From the IMG/VR virus record IMGVR_UViG_2531839468_000024: a DNA stretch of 12,209 bases. One strand, 5' to 3'. Made by a program: the position numbers and the translations under genes. This document shows positions 428-12,209 of the stretch, piece after piece. The DNA is from a virus. Its lineage: Duplodnaviria; Heunggongvirae; Uroviricota; Caudoviricetes. Below the pieces are notes generated by a model. That model made no database searches and was not told where the DNA came from. It saw only the letters and a list, made by a program, of their open reading frames with translations. Numbering within the stretch: position 1 is the first letter of the stretch; every line of letters starts with the position of its first letter.

Positions 428-1114
428 TCACTCCTTCTCTTCTTTATCGTAGTGGAGTTGACCAATTTTGATAAGAGGGCGTCCCTGAGATTTGCGGTGT
501 AGATTGGTATCGCGCAGAGAATACACACAGCCACAATATTCCTGCTGATAGAATTTTTCGCGCTTGCTGATTTCAATCATGCGGGACGAGCCGCCCTGCT
601 TGCGCCAGTTATAATCCCAGTACACCATGCCCGGATAATGCGCGACGGCTCGCCGCCCACAGTCGTTAACCTGCTGCATATTTTTCCAGCGTGAAATGCC
701 CAGTGAACTGCTGATCACACTGAAACCATTTTCAGCAGCGTACAGCGCTGTCCGCTCAAAACGCATGTCAAAACACATGGTACAACGGATCCCCCTCTCG
801 GGCTCCCATTCCATTCCTTTGGCACGTTCAAACCAGTTGTCTGTGTCGTAATCAGCATCAATAAATGGCACGCCGTGTTGTTCAGCAAAGCGAATATTCT
901 CATCCTTACGAATTAAATACTCTTTCTGAGGATGAATGTTCGGGTTGTAGAAAAAGATGGTATAGTCGATTCCCGAGGCCTGAAGCGCCTCCATCACTTC
1001 ACCGGAACATGGAGCACAGCAAGAGTGCAGTAGTAGTTTGTTTGCCCCGTTTGGGAGCTCCAATTTAGGCCGTTTGAAATCAGCAATAGTCATAAATATT
1101 TTTATTGGGGTCAT
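428..1114 (-). CDS. queH: DUF208 / QueH-like epoxyqueuosine reductase (Fe-S enzyme of queuosine tRNA modification)
   Basis: 228-aa ORF with [11 protein letters not shown] motif near the N-terminus plus later cysteines ([14 protein letters not shown]), as I recall for the QueH/DUF208 family. No clear Shine-Dalgarno for either candidate ATG (1114 or 1093). Confidence 0.55.
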
Positions 1115-5393: not shown

Positions 5394-7864
5394 ATGAGTA
5401 AAGTCTTTATTTGCGCCGCTATTCCTGACGAACTGGCAACAAGGGAAGAAGGCGCTGTGGCTGTAGCCACAGCCATTGAAGCTGGCGACGAACGCCGTGC
5501 TCGAGCAAAATTTCACTGGCAGTTCCTGGAACATTATCCGGCTGCTCAGGACTGCGCTTATAAATTTATTGTCTGCGAGGATAAACCTGGCATACCCCGC
5601 CCTGCCCTCGATTCATGGGATGCTGAATATATGCAGGAAAACCGCTGGGATGAGGAGTCTGCTTCTTTTGTCCCGGTTGAGACTGAATCCGATCCGATGA
5701 ACGTCACTTTTGACAAGCTGGCCCCTGAAGTACAGAACGCTGTCATGGTTAAGTTCGACACATGTGAAAACATCACCGTTGATATGGTTATTAGCGCACA
5801 GGAATTGTTGCAGGAAGACATGGCAACATTCGACGGACATATCGTTGAAGCGTTGATGAAAATGCCAGAAGTTAACGCCATGTATCCGGAGCTTAAGTTG
5901 CACGCCATTGGGTGGGTTAAGCATAAATGTATTCCTGGTGCTAAATGGCCCGAAATTCAGGCAGAGATGCGCATCTGGAAAAAACGTCGCGAAGGTGAAC
6001 GCAAGGAAACCGGAAAATACACGTCTGTTGTTGATCTCGCCCGCGCCAGAGCCAATCAACAGTACACTGAAAATTCAACAGGAAAAATCAGCCCGGTCAT
6101 TGCTGCCATTCATCGCGAATACAAGCAGACATGGAAAACACTGGATGACGAACTGGCCTACGCTCTCTGGCCTGGTGATGTGGATGCCGGAAACATTGAC
6201 GGCAGCATCCATCGCTGGGCAAAAAAGAAGTTATCGACAACGACCGCGAAGACTGGAAGCGTATCTCGGCATCAATGCGCAAACAGCCTGATGCCCTTCG
6301 CTACGACCGCCAGACTATTTTTGGCCTTGTCCGTGAGCGTCCGATCGACATTCACAAAGATCCCATAGCACTGAACAAATATATCTGCGAATACCTGACG
6401 ACAAAGGGCGTGTTTGAGAGTGAAGAAACAGACCTGGGCACTGTTGATGTTCTCCAGTCATCAGAAACACAAACTGATGCAGTGGAAACTGAGGTATCTG
6501 ATATCCCAAAAAATGAAACCGCGCCGGAAGCTGAACCATCTGTAGAGCGTGAGGGGCCGTTCTATTTCCTCTTCGCAGATAAGGACGGAGAAAAATACGG
6601 TCGCGCAAACAAACTTTCTGGTCTGGATAAGGCACTGGCTGCTGGCGCCACTGAAATCACAAAAGAAGAATATTTTGCCCGAAAAAATGGCACATACACG
6701 GGCTTACCGCAAAATGTAGATACCGCTGAAGATTCAGAACAACCAGAGCCGATAAAAGTTACCGCTGACGAAGTAAACAAAATTATGCAGGCAGCCAATA
6801 TCAGCCAGCCTGACGCCGATAAGTTGCTTGCTGCATCACGTGGTGAATTTGTTGAAGGGATTAGTGACCCGAATGATCCGAAATGGGTTAAGGGGATCCA
6901 GACCCGCGATTCTGTGAACCAGAACCAGCATGAATCGGAACGGAACTACCAAAAAGCGGAACAAAACAGCACAAATGCGTTACAAAACGAGCCAGAAACG
7001 AAACAGCCTGAACCAGTGGCGCAACAGGAAGTGGAAAAAGTCTGCACCGCCTGCGGTCAGACCGGCGGCGGCAACTGCCCTGATTGTGGCGCGGTGATGG
7101 GCGACGCAACATACCAAGAAACATTCGATGAAGAGTATCAGGTTGAAGTTCAGGAAGATGATCCGGAGGAAATGGAAGGCGCTGAACATCCACACAAGGA
7201 GAACACTGGCGGCAATCAGCATCACAATAGCGATAATGAAACTGGCGAGACGGCAGATCACTCAATTAAGGTGAACGGTCATCACGAAATCACATCCACC
7301 AGCAGGACGTGTGACCATCTAATGATCGACCTTGAAACCATGGGAAAAAATCCTGATGCCCCGATCATCTCAATAGGTGCAATATTTTTCGATCCGCAAA
7401 CCGGAGATATGGGACCGGAATTTAGTAAGACTATCGATCTGGAAACTGCTGGCGGAGTCATTGATCGGGACACCATTAAATGGTGGCTTAAGCAATCACG
7501 CGAAGCGCAATCTGCCATTATGACCGATGAAATCCCGTTAGATGATGCACTGTTACAATTGCGGGAATTTATCGACGAAAACTCCGGTGAATTTTTTGTT
7601 CAGGTTTGGGGAAATGGAGCCAACTTCGACAACACGATTTTGCGCCGTTCATACGAACGGCAGGGGATCCCCTGCCCGTGGCGTTACTACAACGATCGCG
7701 ATGTACGCACAATCGTTGAGCTGGGGAAAGCCATAGACTTCGATGCCAGAACGGCTATTCCATTCGAAGGTGAGCGCCATAATGCACTTGATGACGCCCG
7801 TTACCAGGCAAAATACGTTTCAGTTATCTGGCAAAAACTGATCCCGAGTCAGGCTGATTCTTAA
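5394..7864 (+). pseudogene. YdfE-like large early protein (about 820 aa if fused): unknown N-terminal region, acidic linker, C4 zinc-ribbon-like motif and C-terminal DEDDh (DnaQ-like) 3'-5' exonuclease domain; reading frame broken near 6221-6227
   Basis: Two overlapping ORFs (5394-6368 and 6275-7864); the second frame is open from 6200, and one added base in the A6 run (6221-6226) joins them. Exo motifs: DLET (about 7327-7338), NGANFDNTIL, HNALDDARYQAKY. CTACGQTGGGNCPDCG at about 7045-7092. Confidence 0.65.
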
Positions 7865-7875
7865 TGTTCAACTGT

Positions 7876-7907
7876 CGCCGGTTGTGACTGGTATTCTGCA
7901 ACCGGCG
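7876..7907 (+). other. Stem-loop (9-bp stem CGCCGGTTG / CAACCGGCG, 14-nt loop) just after the exonuclease stop
   Basis: Perfect inverted repeat 7876-7884 / 7899-7907; no following T-tract, so not a canonical intrinsic terminator. Confidence 0.3.
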
Positions 7908-7936
7908 CTCGTCTGATGTAAGAGATAAAGAAATCG

Positions 7937-8065
7937 ATGAGCGAAGTAATCATGATTGTCTCTCCCGGCAAATGGGTATCCGAAGAGCAGTTAATTGCGC
8001 TGAAAGGAATAAAAAAAGGTACGTTAAAAAAGGCCCGGGAAAAATCGTTTATGGAAGGAAGGGAA
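7937..8065 (+). pseudogene. Excisionase-like small gene, 5' fragment (interrupted by IS66-family insertion)
   Basis: ORF reads MSEVIMIVSPGKWVSEEQLIALKGIKKGTLKKAREKSFMEGRE up to the IS boundary at 8066; the same frame resumes after the IS (10773 onward) to a stop at 10893-10895. Confidence 0.5.
8058..8065. repeat. Target-site duplication, left copy (GAAGGGAA)
   Basis: Identical 8-mer directly flanks both IS ends (8058-8065 and 10765-10772). Confidence 0.85.
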
Positions 8066-8148
8066 GTAACCGGCTCATTTAAACCGTCTGGTCTGTTTCC
8101 TCCGGCTCTACAAAAATAATGTCCATCATTTTTAATGGACACTATCGT

Positions 8149-8331
8149 ATGAAACACCGGACCTGGATCACTGAAGCTTTACGTCTTCACTTTGAAGAAC
8201 ATTTACCCCGGGTTGTGGCCGGGCGTCGCCTGAGTGTACCAAAATCAACAGTTTGTAGTATGTTCGTGCGCTTTCGGAGAGCTGGCCTTTCGGTGGCCTT
8301 TGCCCGCAGGCATGTCGGAGCAGGAACTTGA
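8149..8331 (+). CDS. IS-internal upstream ORF of unknown role (HTH-like basic peptide)
   Basis: ATG at 8149 (the track begins at 8119); MKHRTWITEALRLHFEEHLPRVVAGRRLSVPKSTV...; its stop overlaps an ATG at 8331 (TGATG). May be an accessory ORF or chance ORF within the IS left arm. Confidence 0.25.
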   Translation: MKHRTWITEALRLHFEEHLPRVVAGRRLSVPKSTVCSMFVRFRRAGLSVAFARRHVGAGT

Positions 8332-8461
8332 TGCCTGCCTATACGGACAATTTTTCCACGGTACCAGTCGTACGTCCTGAAAGCACCGTTATATCCGAAG
8401 CCCCCGAGGTAAAAAACGTCCCCGGCGGCCCAACTTCCCTTATGAGTTTAAAATCGCCTTA

Positions 8462-8797
8462 GTGGAGCAGTCACTACAGCCCGGAGCCTGTGTGGCGCAG
8501 ATCGCCCGGGAAAACGGAATCAACGATAACCTGCTCTTCAACTGGCGCCATCAATACCGGAAAGGTGGCCTGCTGCCTTCCGGAGAAAATATGCCGGCAC
8601 TGCTTCCCGTGACGTTAACGCCGGAGCCGGATAATAAAATCCCGGCCCCCGCACAGGAACCAGAGCAGATAAATACACCGTCCGACAGTCTGTGTTGTGA
8701 GCTGGTTCTGCCGGCCGGAACTCTCAGGCTTAAAGGTAAACTGACGCCGGCGTTATTACAGACACTTATCCGCGAAATAAAAGGGAGCAGCCACTGA
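8462..8797 (+). CDS. tnpA: IS66-family TnpA (orf1); conserved coding appears to extend upstream of the first in-frame start
   Basis: The first standard start in frame is GTG at 8462, but the same frame is open from 8381 and encodes KKRPRRPNFPYEFKIALVEQSLQPGACVAQIARENGINDNLLFNWRHQYRKG, matching the RRR-x-S-x-EFK...LF-WR-Q pattern I recall for IS66 TnpA. Confidence 0.6.
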   Translation: MEQSLQPGACVAQIARENGINDNLLFNWRHQYRKGGLLPSGENMPALLPVTLTPEPDNKIPAPAQEPEQINTPSDSLCCELVLPAGTLRLKGKLTPALLQTLIREIKGSSH

Positions 8798-9144
8798 TGA
8801 TATCTCTCCCTGCAGGTTCGCGTATCTGGCTGGTTGCAGGTATCACCGATATGCGAAATGGCTTTAACGGCCTGGCATCAAAAGTTCAGAACGTCCTGAA
8901 GGATGACCCGTTCTCCGGACACCTGTTCATCTTCCGCGGACGCCGGGGTGACCAGATAAAAGTGTTGTGGGCTGACAGTGACGGACTGTGCCTCTTCACC
9001 AAACGCCTGGAGCGGGGCCGCTTCGTCTGGCCAGTCACCCGTGACGGCAAGGTGCACCTTACTCCGGCTCAGTTATCCATGCTTCTTGAAGGTATCAACT
9101 GGAAGCACCCGAAACGAACGGAACGCGCTGGAATCCGCATATAA
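8797..9144 (+). CDS. tnpB: IS66-family TnpB (orf2)
   Basis: 115 aa, MISLPAGSRIWLVAGITDMRNGFNGLA...GHLFIFRGRRGDQIKVLWADSDGLCLFTKRLERGRF, the characteristic IS66 orf2 sequence; start overlaps the tnpA stop. Confidence 0.85.
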   Translation: MISLPAGSRIWLVAGITDMRNGFNGLASKVQNVLKDDPFSGHLFIFRGRRGDQIKVLWADSDGLCLFTKRLERGRFVWPVTRDGKVHLTPAQLSMLLEGINWKHPKRTERAGIRI

Positions 9145-9163
9145 CCCGTTGTAAAGTGAGGAT

Positions 9164-10734
9164 ATGGACACCTCACTTGCTCATGAGAACGCCCGCCTGC
9201 GGGCACTGTTGCAGACGCAACAGGACACCATCCGCCAGATGGCTGAATACAACCGCCTGCTCTCACAGCGGGTGGCGGCTTATGCTTCCGAAATCAACCG
9301 GCTGAAGGCGCTGGTTGCGAAACTGCAACGTATGCAGTTCGGTAAAAGCTCAGAAAAACTTCGTGCAAAAACCGAACGGCAGATACAGGAAGCACAGGAG
9401 CGAATCAGCGCACTTCAGGAAGAAATGGCGGAAACGCTGGGTGAGCAATATGACCCGGTACTGCCATCCGCCCTGCGCCAGTCTTCAGCCCGTAAACCGT
9501 TACCGGCCTCACTTCCCCGTGAAACCCGGGTTATCCGGCCGGAAGAGGAATGCTGTCCTGCCTGTGGTGGTGAACTCAGTTCTCTGGGATGTGATGTGTC
9601 AGAGCAACTGGAGCTTATCAGCAGCGCCTTTAAGGTTATCGAAACACAACGTCCGAAACAGGCCTGTTGCCGGTGCGACCATATCGTGCAGGCACCAGTA
9701 CCTTCAAAACCCATTGCACGCAGTTATGCCGGAGCGGGGCTTCTGGCCCATGTTGTCACCGGGAAATATGCAGACCATCTGCCGTTATACCGCCAGTCAG
9801 AAATATACCGTCGTCAGGGAGTGGAGCTGAGCCGTGCCACACTGGGGCGCTGGACAGGTGCTGTTGCTGAACTGCTGGAGCCGCTGTATGACGTCCTGCG
9901 CCAGTATGTGCTGATGCCCGGTAAAGTCCATGCTGATGATATCCCCGTCCCGGTCCAGGAGCCGGGCAGCGGTAAAACCCGGACAGCCCGGCTGTGGGTC
10001 TACGTCCGTGATGACCGTAACGCCGGTTCACAGATGCCCCCGGCGGTCTGGTTCGCGTACAGTCCGGACCGGAAAGGTATCCATCCACAAAATCACCTGG
10101 CCGGTTACAGCGGTGTGCTTCAGGCCGATGCTTACGGTGGTTACCGGGCGTTATACGAATCCGGCAGAATAACGGAAGCCGCGTGTATGGCTCATGCCCG
10201 GAGAAAATCCACGATGTGCATGCAAGAGCGCCCACCTACATCACCACGGAAGCCCTGCAGCGTATCGGTGAACTGTATGCCATCGAGGCAGAGGTCCGGG
10301 GCTGTTCAGCAGAACAGCGTCTGGCGGCAAGAAAAGCCAGAGCCGCGCCACTGATGCAGTCACTGTATGACTGGATACAGCAACAGATGAAAACACTGTC
10401 GCGTCACTCAGATACGGCAAAAGCGTTCGCATACCTGCTGAAACAGTGGGATGCACTGAACGTGTACTGCAGTAATGGCTGGGTGGAAATCGACAACAAC
10501 ATCGCAGAGAACGCCTTACGGGGAGTGGCCGTAGGCCGGAAAAACTGGATGTTCGCGGGTTCCGACAGCGGTGGTGAACATGCGGCGGTGTTGTACTCGC
10601 TGATCGGCACATGCCGTCTGAACAATGTGGAGCCAGAAAAGTGGCTGCGTTACGTCATTGAACATATCCAGGACTGGCCGGCAAACCGGGTACGCGATCT
10701 GTTGCCCTGGAAAGTTGATCTGAGCTCTCAGTAA
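9164..10734 (+). pseudogene. tnpC: IS66-family TnpC transposase, frameshifted (two ORFs, 9164-10354 and 10183-10734)
   Basis: N-terminal coiled-coil/leucine-zipper-like region, CPACGG zinc-finger motif, then ...[11 protein letters not shown] in one frame continuing as IHDVHA... in the next; one added base near 10208 would restore a single reading frame of about 520 aa. Confidence 0.8.
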
Positions 10735-10764
10735 ATATCAATACGGTTCTGACGAGTCGCTTAC

Positions 10765-10772
10765 GAAGGGAA
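10765..10772. repeat. Target-site duplication, right copy (GAAGGGAA)
   Basis: Identical to 8058-8065; directly abuts the IS right end. Confidence 0.85.
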
Positions 10773-10895
10773 TATAAGCATGTCGCTCATGACGGTATGC
10801 CATGGGATAACAGTCCATGCTTTTACAACCTGGAAGAAATTGATCGCTGGATTGAGCGCCAGGCATCAGCGAGACCAAGACGTCATCTTACTTGA
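10765..10895 (+). pseudogene. Excisionase-like small gene, 3' fragment
   Basis: Frame open across the IS right boundary: ...YKHVAHDGMPWDNSPCFYNLEEIDRWIERQASARPRRHLT stop. The C-terminal EEIDRWIE resembles the W-x-EID-x-W tail of AlpA/Xis-type proteins. Joining the fragments with a single copy of the duplication gives an 83-aa protein. Confidence 0.5.
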
Positions 10896-10929
10896 CTAAA
10901 AGCCACACTAACTAATGAGAGAAGTTGAA

Positions 10930-12209
10930 ATGAAATATCCGACAGGCGTGGAAAACCATGGAGGGAAATTACGTATCTGGTTTGTTTATAAAGGCGTAAG
11001 AGTCAGGGAAAATCTGGGGGTTCCTGACACAGCAAAAAACAGGCACGTTGCAGGTGAACTACGCTCCTCTGTTTGTTACGCAATAAAAACTGGTGTTTTC
11101 GACTATGCAAAACAGTTTCCCTCCTCACGCAATCTGGAAAAATTTGGTGAGGCCCGACAAGATTTAACCATAAAAGAACTGGCTGAAAAATTTCTGGCAC
11201 TGAAAGAAACTGAAGTCGCCAAAACATCACTCAACACATACCGTGCCGTCATCAAAAATATCCTGAGCATAATCGGTGAAAAAAATCTTGCCTCATCGAT
11301 TAATAAAGAAAAATTACTGGAGGTTCGTAAAGAGCTACTGACTGGATACCAGATCCCCAAAAGTAACTATATTGTTACACAACCAGGGAGATCGGCTGTA
11401 ACTGTAAATAATTACATGACAAATCTTAACGCCGTGTTCCAGTTTGGTGTTGATAACGGTTACCTGCCAGATAATCCGTTTAAGGGGATCTCGCCATTAA
11501 AGGAATCAAGAACCATTCCGGATCCTCTTTCGCGGGAGGAATTTATCCGTCTTATCGATGCGTGCAGAAATCAGCAAGCAAAAAATATATGGTGTGTTTC
11601 TGTTTATACTGGCGTTCGCCCTGGTGAGCTGTGTGCACTTGGATGGGAGGACATAGATCTGAAAAATGGAACAATGATGATCAGGAGAAATTTAGCAAAA
11701 GACCGTTTCACGGTACCAAAAACACAGGCGGGAACCAATCGGGTCATTCATCTTATTAAGCCAGCAATCGACGCTCTCCGGAGTCAGATGACATTAACGA
11801 GACTGAGCAAAGAGCATATCATTGATGTTCACCTCAGAGAGTATGGCAGAACAGAAAAACAAAAATGCACCTTTGTTTTTCAACCTGAAGTGTCAGCGAG
11901 AGTAAAAATTATGGTGACCATTTTACCGTTGACTCAATAAGGCAGATGTGGGACGCAGCGATAAAACGTGCCGGACTCCGCCATCGAAAATCATATCAGT
12001 CGAGACATACTTATGCCTGCTGGTCGCTGACAGCTGGTGCTAACCCGGCATTTATAGCAAACCAGATGGGCCATGCAGATGCGCAAATGGTATTTCAGGT
12101 ATACGGAAAATGGATGTCTGAAAACAATAATGCACAGGTAGCTTTGTTAAATACACAGTTAAGCGAGTTTGCCCCAACCATGCCCCATAACGAAGCAATG
12201 AAAAATTAA
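10930..12209 (+). pseudogene. int: Lambda-family tyrosine integrase, frame broken at an A5 run (11904-11908)
   Basis: Two ORFs (10915-11940 and 11946-12209); the downstream frame is open from 11889 and carries the catalytic HxxR (SRHTYA), second His (GHAD) and Tyr (VYGKW) region; the N-terminus PTGVE...LRIWFVYKGVRVRE is typical of lambdoid integrases. Confidence 0.8.

Follow-up and report, generated by a model that had tools for sequence, protein, structure and literature searches.

An ISCro1 insertion in the excisionase gene of a Qin-type prophage of Escherichia coli ETEC strain 3030-2

Next to the integrase gene of a prophage in a porcine ETEC strain, a small open reading frame is interrupted by an insertion sequence (IS). 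The locus raises the questions of what was inserted into which gene, whether the prophage could still excise, and whether the insertion stands alone. We addressed these questions in a stretch of 12,209 nucleotides (hereafter, the window) from contig AFDT01000031.1, part of the draft assembly of strain 3030-2.

Anatomy of the insertion and the interrupted gene

The features on which the analysis relied are given below by position in the window.

5394..7864, + strand: gene for the 3'-5' exonuclease of the prophage, a homologue of YdfE (full length in strain A1, 823 aa); Pfam Rv2179c-like, 1.3e-67
7937..8065, + strand: xis 5' part, codons 1-43
8058..8065, no strand: left copy of the target-site duplication (TSD), 8 bp, GAAGGGAA
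8066..10764, + strand: ISCro1 (IS66 family), 2,699 bp, in the orientation of xis and int
8066..8087, no strand: left terminal inverted repeat, GTAACCGGCTCATTTAAACCGT, 22 nt, 73% complementary
8119..8797, + strand: tnpA (reference length 225 aa); one-base indels +G at 8292, +T at 8351 and -A at 8411
8797..9144, + strand: tnpB (IS66 Orf2-like accessory protein), 115 aa; PF05717, 4.7e-40
9164..10734, + strand: tnpC, DDE transposase, 523 aa in reference copies; one A lost from an A5 run at 10204
10743..10764, no strand: right terminal inverted repeat, ...ACGGTTCTGACGAGTCGCTTAC
10765..10772, no strand: right copy of the TSD, 8 bp, GAAGGGAA
10773..10895, + strand: xis 3' part, codons 44-83 and stop
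10930..12209, + strand: tyrosine integrase gene (int), IntQ-type, 426 aa in reference genomes; one A lost from an A6 run at 11904

The direct repeat GAAGGGAA was found, base-exact, at 8058-8065 and 10765-10772, where the preliminary description had placed it, and there was no further copy on either strand of the window. Dinucleotide shuffles gave an expectation of 0.41 copies per window, and the relevant chance, that of the 8-mers abutting both element ends being the same, is about 4^-8. The 2,699 bp between the duplications start with GTAACC and finish with GCTTAC, which agrees with the GTAA-initiated imperfect inverted repeats reported earlier. These ends are of the IS66 type (GTAACCGG... 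from 8066, ...GCTTAC to 10764), and the terminal inverted repeats of 22 nt are 73% complementary (8066-8087 and 10743-10764).

The reading frame of the small gene is open for 43 codons from 7937 to the left IS boundary at 8065 and resumes at 10773 to reach a stop at 10895. Joining 7937-8065 to 10773-10895 gave 252 nt, encoding the 83 aa and stop that had been proposed. As sequenced, the 5' stub runs into the IS as a 60-aa fusion ORF ending at 8119 (43 aa plus 17 IS-encoded residues), and the C-terminal half, separated after codon 43 of 83, is without a start codon. The reconstructed 2,000 bp was identical (100%) to strain PI24, uninterrupted and in a single BLAST piece, and at least 80% of it was present in 2,485 genomes, in which the annotated products are an exonuclease, an excisionase family protein and an integrase. 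No rearrangement has followed the insertion, as the flanks join perfectly in related genomes; the perfect 8-bp duplication and the contiguous empty site in PI24 supported the original view of a simple insertion.

The rebuilt 83-aa protein is WP_000005552.1; strains PI24 and A1 encode the same protein, annotated as excisionase. It matched Pfam DUF1233 (PF06806) over profile positions 1-69 of 70 with E = 1.6e-31 and a score of 108 bits, the cut-off being 22, and its nearest solved structure was a putative excisionase, 2KVV; an NCBIfam search of the protein gave no match. Homologues of the reconstructed ORF exist, including the identical protein in four isolated lambdoid phages. The reconstructed stop lies 34 bp before the ATG of int, with both genes in the same orientation, and rspB follows int. 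These data confirmed that an excisionase-like gene next to int had been interrupted. The additional label of AlpA-like had to be dropped, as the Pfam scan (E <= 0.01) returned DUF1233 only, without AlpA (PF05930).

The assignment of the element to the IS66 family was upheld by Pfam and NCBIfam matches for TnpA, TnpB and TnpC and by 99.7% nucleotide identity to PGAP-named ISCro1 copies. We based the name ISCro1 on PGAP labels ("IS66-like element ISCro1 family") and on the length in a published ISCro1 insertion of 2,699 bp with an 8-bp TSD (PMC12115866). The Pfam domains identified in the window IS, HTH_Tnp_1, TnpB_IS66, LZ_Tnp_IS66, zf-IS66, DDE_Tnp_IS66 and DDE_Tnp_IS66_C, represent all three genes, and the reference copy scored above the NCBIfam cut-offs for IS66_access_TnpA (293.9 bits), IS66_TnpB (128.9 bits) and transpos_IS66 (477.9 bits). 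Copies of ISCro1 matched at 99.7-99.8% over the full 2,699 bp, and 1,493 genomes had matches of at least 80% coverage. Relative to the ISCro1 copy of strain A1, the window copy had 4 substitutions and 4 one-base indels. Its tnpB is intact and identical to the reference, the match of tnpA to the reference is confined to the first 58 aa, and tnpC is as the reference for the first 348 aa, with DDE_Tnp_IS66 divided between two ORFs. As sequenced, the copy is not autonomous, with three frameshifts in tnpA and one in tnpC that are possibly sequencing errors; it could be mobilised in trans, its ends being intact. The frameshifts in these two genes had been missed in the preliminary description.

The host prophage is a Qin-type (mEp460-like) lambdoid prophage at rspB. 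Gene-order comparison identified rspB, rspA and ynfA as the downstream neighbours and dicB and ydfD as the upstream neighbours, giving the order dicB-ydfD-ydfE(exonuclease)-int with rspB adjacent; the contig does not reach the opposite end of the prophage. Rac was also considered as the locus, prompted by the PGAP label "xisR" on some copies, and was excluded by the rspB/rspA/ynfA flank and by comparison with K-12. That label is a family name and not a statement of orthology.

We consider it very probable that one copy of ISCro1 transposed into xis of the Qin-type prophage beside rspB in 3030-2, an explanation that takes in the consequence for excision and the reading of the frameshifts set out below. 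Judging from its family, and consistent with the anatomy of the insertion, the IS66-family DDE transposase TnpC would have joined both ends of the IS to target DNA whose strands were cut with an 8-bp stagger, and repair of the gaps would have duplicated GAAGGGAA. The event itself is ordinary and of a kind already known. Insertion of a known IS into a prophage accessory gene is routine and is one usual route to "grounded" prophages.

Recurrent ISCro1 insertions in xis and the 5' half of int

To look for the same insertion, 600-bp queries of the two junctions were run against 5,426 complete E. coli genomes, and neither junction gave a single-piece match. An exact 40-mer junction scan of GTDB representative genomes also gave no match, and the 60-aa Xis-IS fusion, searched for as an identical protein, was found in the source contig alone. 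Other ISCro1 insertions in xis or the 5' half of int were present in 135 of the 5,426 genomes. The first junction query detected copies in the window orientation only (69 genomes), and a chimeric query with the IS reversed identified those in the other (66 genomes), indicating no orientation bias in this region.

Nineteen mapped copies, from 18 fetched genomes and the window, occupied 16 distinct sites in about 0.8 kb, and each of the 18 other insertions had a perfect 8-bp TSD. Three 8-bp targets had each received two insertions, one in either orientation, in strains of differing background. Identical searches with control anchors found insertions in 0 genomes for the adjacent exonuclease gene and in 5 genomes for the 3' half of int. 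A position count over the 16 sites, with 20 nt on each side, revealed no target motif shared by the TSDs or their flanks; the sites showed mild A-richness only, matching the regional composition. The comparisons with PI24 and K-12 hint that other IS types (IS2, IS3 and IS1) may cluster in this interval too.

Based on these distributions, we tentatively suggest, at somewhat less than an even chance, that ISCro1 has a genuine regional and site-level preference for a stretch of ~0.8 kb, made up of xis and the 5' half of int, in Qin/mEp460-type prophages. Choice at the level of the site is indicated because three targets were reused, when about 0.2 coincident pairs would be expected under uniform use of the region. 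Such a preference could be guided by a protein bound to the stretch or by the local structure of its DNA, which has 40-44% GC, and not by a sequence motif. To our knowledge, no target preference has been described for ISCro1, and we know of no well-characterised mechanism of target-site choice in the IS66 family. In the literature on ISCro1 and IS66 target preference we found nothing on the prophage xis-int region; an IS hot spot in which ISCro1 is involved has been reported upstream of afaA (PMC8764528).

Alternatively, with no preference of the transposase for this DNA, the excess of ISCro1 could reflect selection or tolerance, the insertions either locking a useful cryptic prophage in place or silencing xis and int, in which case that in the window would be one of many "grounding" events. 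An insertion at any of the 16 mapped sites would damage xis, int or the upstream region that the two share, the same interval was lost in K-12 by an IS2-associated deletion, and no motif is common to the TSDs and flanks. However, insertions in the 3' half of int were rare though they would inactivate Int equally, the exonuclease gene had none though it is dispensable, and selection would not readily account for 8-bp targets that were each hit twice in opposite orientations. We regard selection or tolerance as a possible but rather doubtful source of the excess.

If target preference is the true cause, the region would offer a compact natural target for the study of site choice by an IS66-family transposase, and would point to a recurring means for one IS to immobilise a single prophage family across E. 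coli lineages. This recurrence of insertions is of more interest to workers on transposition than the single insertion.

Origin of the frameshifts

Six indels distinguished the window from near-identical references, and each made a base run longer or shorter by a single base. A runs of 5-7 bases accounted for four of them, and three were clustered in a 120-bp stretch of tnpA. As sequenced, the frame of int breaks after residue 326, and the RHT box (residue 359) and the His and Tyr near residues 382 and 392 would be missing from the 336-aa product. The Arm-binding, SAM-like core-binding and catalytic domains are represented, and the reference protein aligns through the RHT, GH and VY motifs. 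At 6221, an A7 run has lost one A, which divides the exonuclease gene into ORFs of 324 and 529 aa.

The integrase had previously been described as broken. One A is indeed missing at 11904, but the allele is private to this draft, being absent from 2,976 other genomes, and sequencing error is the likelier origin because five other homopolymer-length indels accompany that of int in the window. From the sequence comparisons, int, tnpA, tnpC and the exonuclease gene more likely owe their frameshifts to errors of a 2011-era draft than to mutation. Early drafts were typically made by pyrosequencing, which is prone to run-length errors.

Were the frameshifts real, the prophage would be doubly locked, with neither Xis nor a catalytic Int, and the ISCro1 copy would be a dead, non-autonomous relic. 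The indels are in the deposited contig, slippage in base runs does decay cryptic prophages and old IS copies, and int or exonuclease genes at this locus are broken in other genomes too. In addition, the 5.9 kb of core chromosome downstream had one indel, which was intergenic, and none in its coding sequence; as an error-prone assembly would not obviously leave such a region untouched, part of the frameshifts in the prophage and the IS may be genuine. Set against this are the extreme ratio of indels to substitutions (2:0 in the 3,929 bp of flanks compared with PI24, and 4:4 in the IS), the change of a single base in run length at every one of the six indels with three of them so close together, the private int allele and the early date of the draft assembly. 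We think it unlikely that the frameshifts are real mutations. With draft error as the preferred reading, the pseudogene calls for int, the exonuclease gene, tnpA and tnpC in the 3030-2 contig are not to be trusted at face value.

It is extremely improbable that the IS-xis junctions themselves are an assembly artifact, with a repeat misplaced in the contig, for although the contig comes from a draft and E. coli genomes commonly have several copies of ISCro1, a mis-join would not yield a perfect 8-bp duplication at both termini with flanks that restore a known gene, and the same type of insertion occurred nearby in 18 other genomes, with its own TSD in each.

Excision and comparison with known systems

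Without Xis, the adjacent tyrosine integrase would be unable to perform excisive attL x attR recombination efficiently. Loss of xis should strongly reduce excision, and the Qin-type prophage of ETEC 3030-2 is probably unable to excise. That the prophage would be fixed in the chromosome, as was first proposed for the insertion together with the broken integrase, we infer from the biology of lambda and Rac. A role of Xis in promoting Int-dependent excision and binding the att arm has been demonstrated for a distant homologue only, XisR, a protein that binds attR and without which Rac excised 9- to 14-fold less (PMC4632033).

In Rac, XisR and IntR likewise form a pair in which a small DUF1233-type Xis is encoded immediately upstream of an Arm-domain tyrosine integrase. 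The relationship is a distant one, with 26% identity between Xis and XisR (E = 2e-5) and 43% between Int and IntR. Rac is also a different prophage, with its attachment site by ttcA, whereas the window prophage is by rspB. Phages mEp460_ev081, HannyBb, Tritos and PhiR42_1 encode the identical 83-aa excisionase in an intact gene; these are isolated phages, so that the interrupted gene is part of a module which viable temperate phages still use.

ISCro1 was catalogued first in Citrobacter rodentium ICC168 and is widespread in E. coli. The window element is the same in its 2,699 bp, its tnpA-tnpB-tnpC genes, its GTAA/TTAC termini, its 8-bp TSD and its 99.7% identity (PMC3072379; PMC12115866). Unlike annotated copies, it has four one-base indels, with tnpA and tnpC broken as sequenced, and no other assembly was found to have an insertion at exactly this site.

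The closest counterpart of the interrupted locus is the cryptic prophage Qin of K-12 (ydfE - IS2E - intQ - rspB), which occupies the same locus with the order dicB, ydfD, exonuclease/ydfE, int and rspB and is 99.4-99.7% identical to the window in the parts common to both. The IS had been noted as different from the IS2 of K-12, and this was correct, as MG1655 Qin carries an IS2E remnant between ydfE and intQ. In K-12, the equivalent of window positions 6161-11050 is replaced by this IS2 remnant, so that K-12 lacks the 3' two-thirds of the exonuclease gene, xis in its entirety and ~120 bp at the start of int. In the window, unlike in K-12 Qin, all of these parts are present, and xis is only split, by another IS.

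The interrupted gene and the inserted element

The left junction (8058-8066) read ...TTTATGGAAG-GAAGGGAA-GTAACCGGCTC... and the right junction (10764-10773) ...GAGTCGCTTAC-GAAGGGAA-TATAAGC.... A scan of both strands of the window found GAAGGGAA in these two copies only (0.41 copies expected from shuffles), and they bracket 2,699 bp that begin with GTAA, end with TTAC and carry terminal inverted repeats of 22 nt (73% complementary). The xis ORF has 43 open codons from 7937 to the insertion sequence (IS); its frame picks up again at 10773 and stops at 10895, and the joined halves encode an 83-residue protein. As it stands, xis is broken after codon 43, and the remaining stub runs 17 codons into the IS, which points the same way as xis and int. 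On rechecking, the preliminary description had the duplication, the IS ends, the xis frame and the 83-residue reconstruction all correctly placed.

The empty site, rebuilt as 7066-8065 plus 10773-11772, matched E. coli PI24 at 2,000 of 2,000 bases in a single piece, and 2,485 genomes carried at least 80% of it, annotated in the order exonuclease, excisionase family protein, integrase. This makes the two flanks contiguous in the absence of the IS, the point on which the preliminary description had asked for a comparison with related genomes. As it had also proposed, the event was a simple insertion, with the 8-bp duplication intact, the flanks rejoining as in PI24 and no rearrangement since. 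Judging from the family, an IS66-type DDE transposase would have made a staggered 8-bp cut in the target, followed by gap repair.

The rebuilt protein was identical to the annotated excisionase WP_000005552.1 and matched Pfam DUF1233 ("putative excisionase", 1.6e-31); its nearest solved relative was 2KVV, a putative excisionase, and the Pfam search returned no AlpA match. We assign the interrupted gene to the DUF1233 excisionases, outside the AlpA family, so that of the earlier label "Xis/AlpA-like" only the first half is retained.

The ORFs of the IS matched HTH_Tnp_1 (tnpA), TnpB_IS66 (tnpB) and LZ_Tnp_IS66, zf-IS66, DDE_Tnp_IS66 and DDE_Tnp_IS66_C (tnpC), in keeping with the IS66 membership first proposed. 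A megablast search of 5,426 complete E. coli genomes found the IS at 80% query coverage or more in 1,493; full-length copies were all 2,699 bp, 99.7-99.8% identical, and labeled by PGAP as "IS66-like element ISCro1 family transposase" with TnpA and TnpB. In the reference copy from strain A1, the IS66 TnpA, TnpB and transposase scored far over the NCBIfam cut-offs. The length of 2,699 bp and an 8-bp duplication are likewise on record for a published insertion of ISCro1 (PMC12115866); ISCro1 was first catalogued from Citrobacter rodentium, where 24 copies are present (PMC3072379). Because of these protein matches, the near-identity, the PGAP label and the published length and duplication, we identify the element as ISCro1, a known IS66-family member. 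It has every structural feature of IS66/ISCro1 elements except, as sequenced, a full set of intact ORFs.

Frameshifts in the window sequence

Alignment of the window to PI24, strain A1 and one reference ISCro1 copy called six indels. Every one of them lengthens or shortens a base run by one base and disrupts a gene.

Indels in the window (position, run in reference to run in window, gene)
6221, A7 to A6, exonuclease
8292, G1 to G2, tnpA
8351, T4 to T5, tnpA
8411, A7 to A6, tnpA
10204, A5 to A4, tnpC
11904, A6 to A5, int

As sequenced, Int ceases to match after residue 326 of 426 and lacks the RHT (residue 359) as well as the His and Tyr of the C-terminus; TnpA and TnpC have only their first 58 and 348 residues, respectively, in common with the reference. 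That the frameshifts in int, the exonuclease gene, tnpA and tnpC are real mutations seems doubtful to us. The adjoining 5.9 kb of core DNA, with one indel only, and that intergenic, would favor it. Against it, the flanks had two indels and no substitutions relative to PI24 over 3,929 bp, the A5 int allele was found in none of 2,976 other genomes with the same int region, and three of the six indels fall inside 120 bp; the IS itself had four indels and four substitutions. This pattern fits draft-assembly error better than evolution, and such error is the likely, if unproven, cause. The 2011-era drafts of the source project were presumably made by pyrosequencing. The "broken integrase" of the preliminary description is thus present in the sequence, as a base-run indel in a private allele, and is probably an assembly error. 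The disruption of xis stands whether or not the frameshifts are real: base-calling artefacts do not take the form of an IS bordered by a target duplication.

The core-DNA indel downstream of the window lies at 14748 of the source contig, between rspA and ynfA, where G1 becomes G2 beside an A7 run relative to PI24; the same 5.9 kb had 38 substitutions.

ISCro1 insertions around xis and int

The window's own insertion was not recovered elsewhere by junction searches, and an exact-protein search with the 60-residue Xis-IS fusion found the junction in no other assembly. ISCro1 lay nearby, within about 0.8 kb, in 69 genomes in the window orientation and in 66 in the opposite orientation (chimeric query with the IS reversed), counts that are inflated by clones (e.g., O26:H11) and over a range bounded by the search design. 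We fetched 18 of these genomes and mapped the IS ends. With the window, the 19 insertions occupied 16 distinct positions, each with its own perfect 8-bp duplication, spread over the region upstream of xis, xis itself, the spacer before int and the 5' half of int (empty-site 7911-8730, or window 7911-8065 plus 10773-11437).

Three 8-bp targets, CGTTAAAA, GAAAATCT and CGCCGTGT, bore ISCro1 in both orientations (window-equivalent 8022-8029, 11008-11015 and 11430-11437; fetched loci L015 vs L022, L007 vs L020, and L013 vs L018), in strains that differ in neighboring protein variants, which implies that each of the three sites was hit independently more than once, at exactly the same position. Uniform use of 820 positions predicts about 0.2 coincident pairs, versus the three shared targets. 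Controls of identical design gave no genomes when anchored in the exonuclease gene (6666-6965) and five in the 3' part of int (11600-11899), and an even spread of 14,207 ISCro1-like places over 5-Mb genomes gives about 2.3 per 0.82 kb, versus 135 observed.

A preference of ISCro1 for the xis-int stretch may be real, and selection for prophage lock-in could add to the clustering. The mapped sites shared no target motif; AT content in the neighborhood peaks in this stretch (40-44% GC vs 45-55% in the exonuclease gene). No account of this hot region turned up in the searchable literature, in which a different IS hot spot with ISCro1 is reported upstream of afaA (PMC8764528). If true, the preference would hold some moderate interest for specialists in transposition.

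Other elements were also seen here. The right edge of the K-12 IS2E remnant falls inside the stretch repeatedly hit by ISCro1, and two other genomes, H51 and H52, have an IS3-family element in the 2-kb junction region. Strain D1 (L005, 4409-6344) carries an internally deleted ISCro1 of 1,936 bp at the xis 3' end, with two intact termini and a perfect duplication (GACCAAGA), annotated with tnpA and an N-terminally truncated transposase only, and no tnpB.

The prophage and its relatives

The window corresponds to 2-12210 of AFDT01000031.1 (GCA_000225085.2), from porcine ETEC strain 3030-2 (PMC4358887); rspB lies just after it, and the other end of the prophage is beyond the contig. We place the locus in the Qin prophage because, in PI24 and A1, dicB and ydfD precede the integrase gene and rspB, rspA and ynfA follow it. 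The prophage also has an epoxyqueuosine reductase QueH-like gene (428-1114, minus strand), which adjoins DUF977 and YdaT-toxin genes and a Cro/CI-type switch (strain A1 annotation and source-contig Pfam matches). Strain A1 has a Kiwa KwaB-like gene just upstream of the equivalent region.

Going by lambda and Rac biology, the prophage should be held in place through the loss of Xis, because without Xis excisive recombination should drop strongly. The finding is correct yet ordinary, since IS insertion in prophage recombination genes is a textbook path of prophage decay.

Isolated phages HannyBb, mEp460_ev081, Tritos and PhiR42_1 (n = 4) encode the identical 83-residue excisionase, so that the rebuilt ORF, for which a lack of homologues had been considered, has identical ones in these phages besides the annotated protein. 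Rac XisR, an experimentally shown excisionase that binds attR and whose deletion cuts excision 9- to 14-fold (PMC4632033), was 26% identical to the rebuilt Xis (E = 2e-5), and Rac IntR was 43% identical to the Arm-domain tyrosine integrase encoded downstream of xis. At the same place, K-12 MG1655 has ydfE', an IS2E remnant and intQ', in agreement with the IS2 that the preliminary description placed there. In the alignment, the remnant (1650843-1651548) stands in for window-equivalent 6161-11050, and K-12 has thereby lost xis entirely, two-thirds of the exonuclease gene (its 3' part) and ~120 bp at the start of int; the locus in the window is a fuller version of the K-12 Qin prophage.
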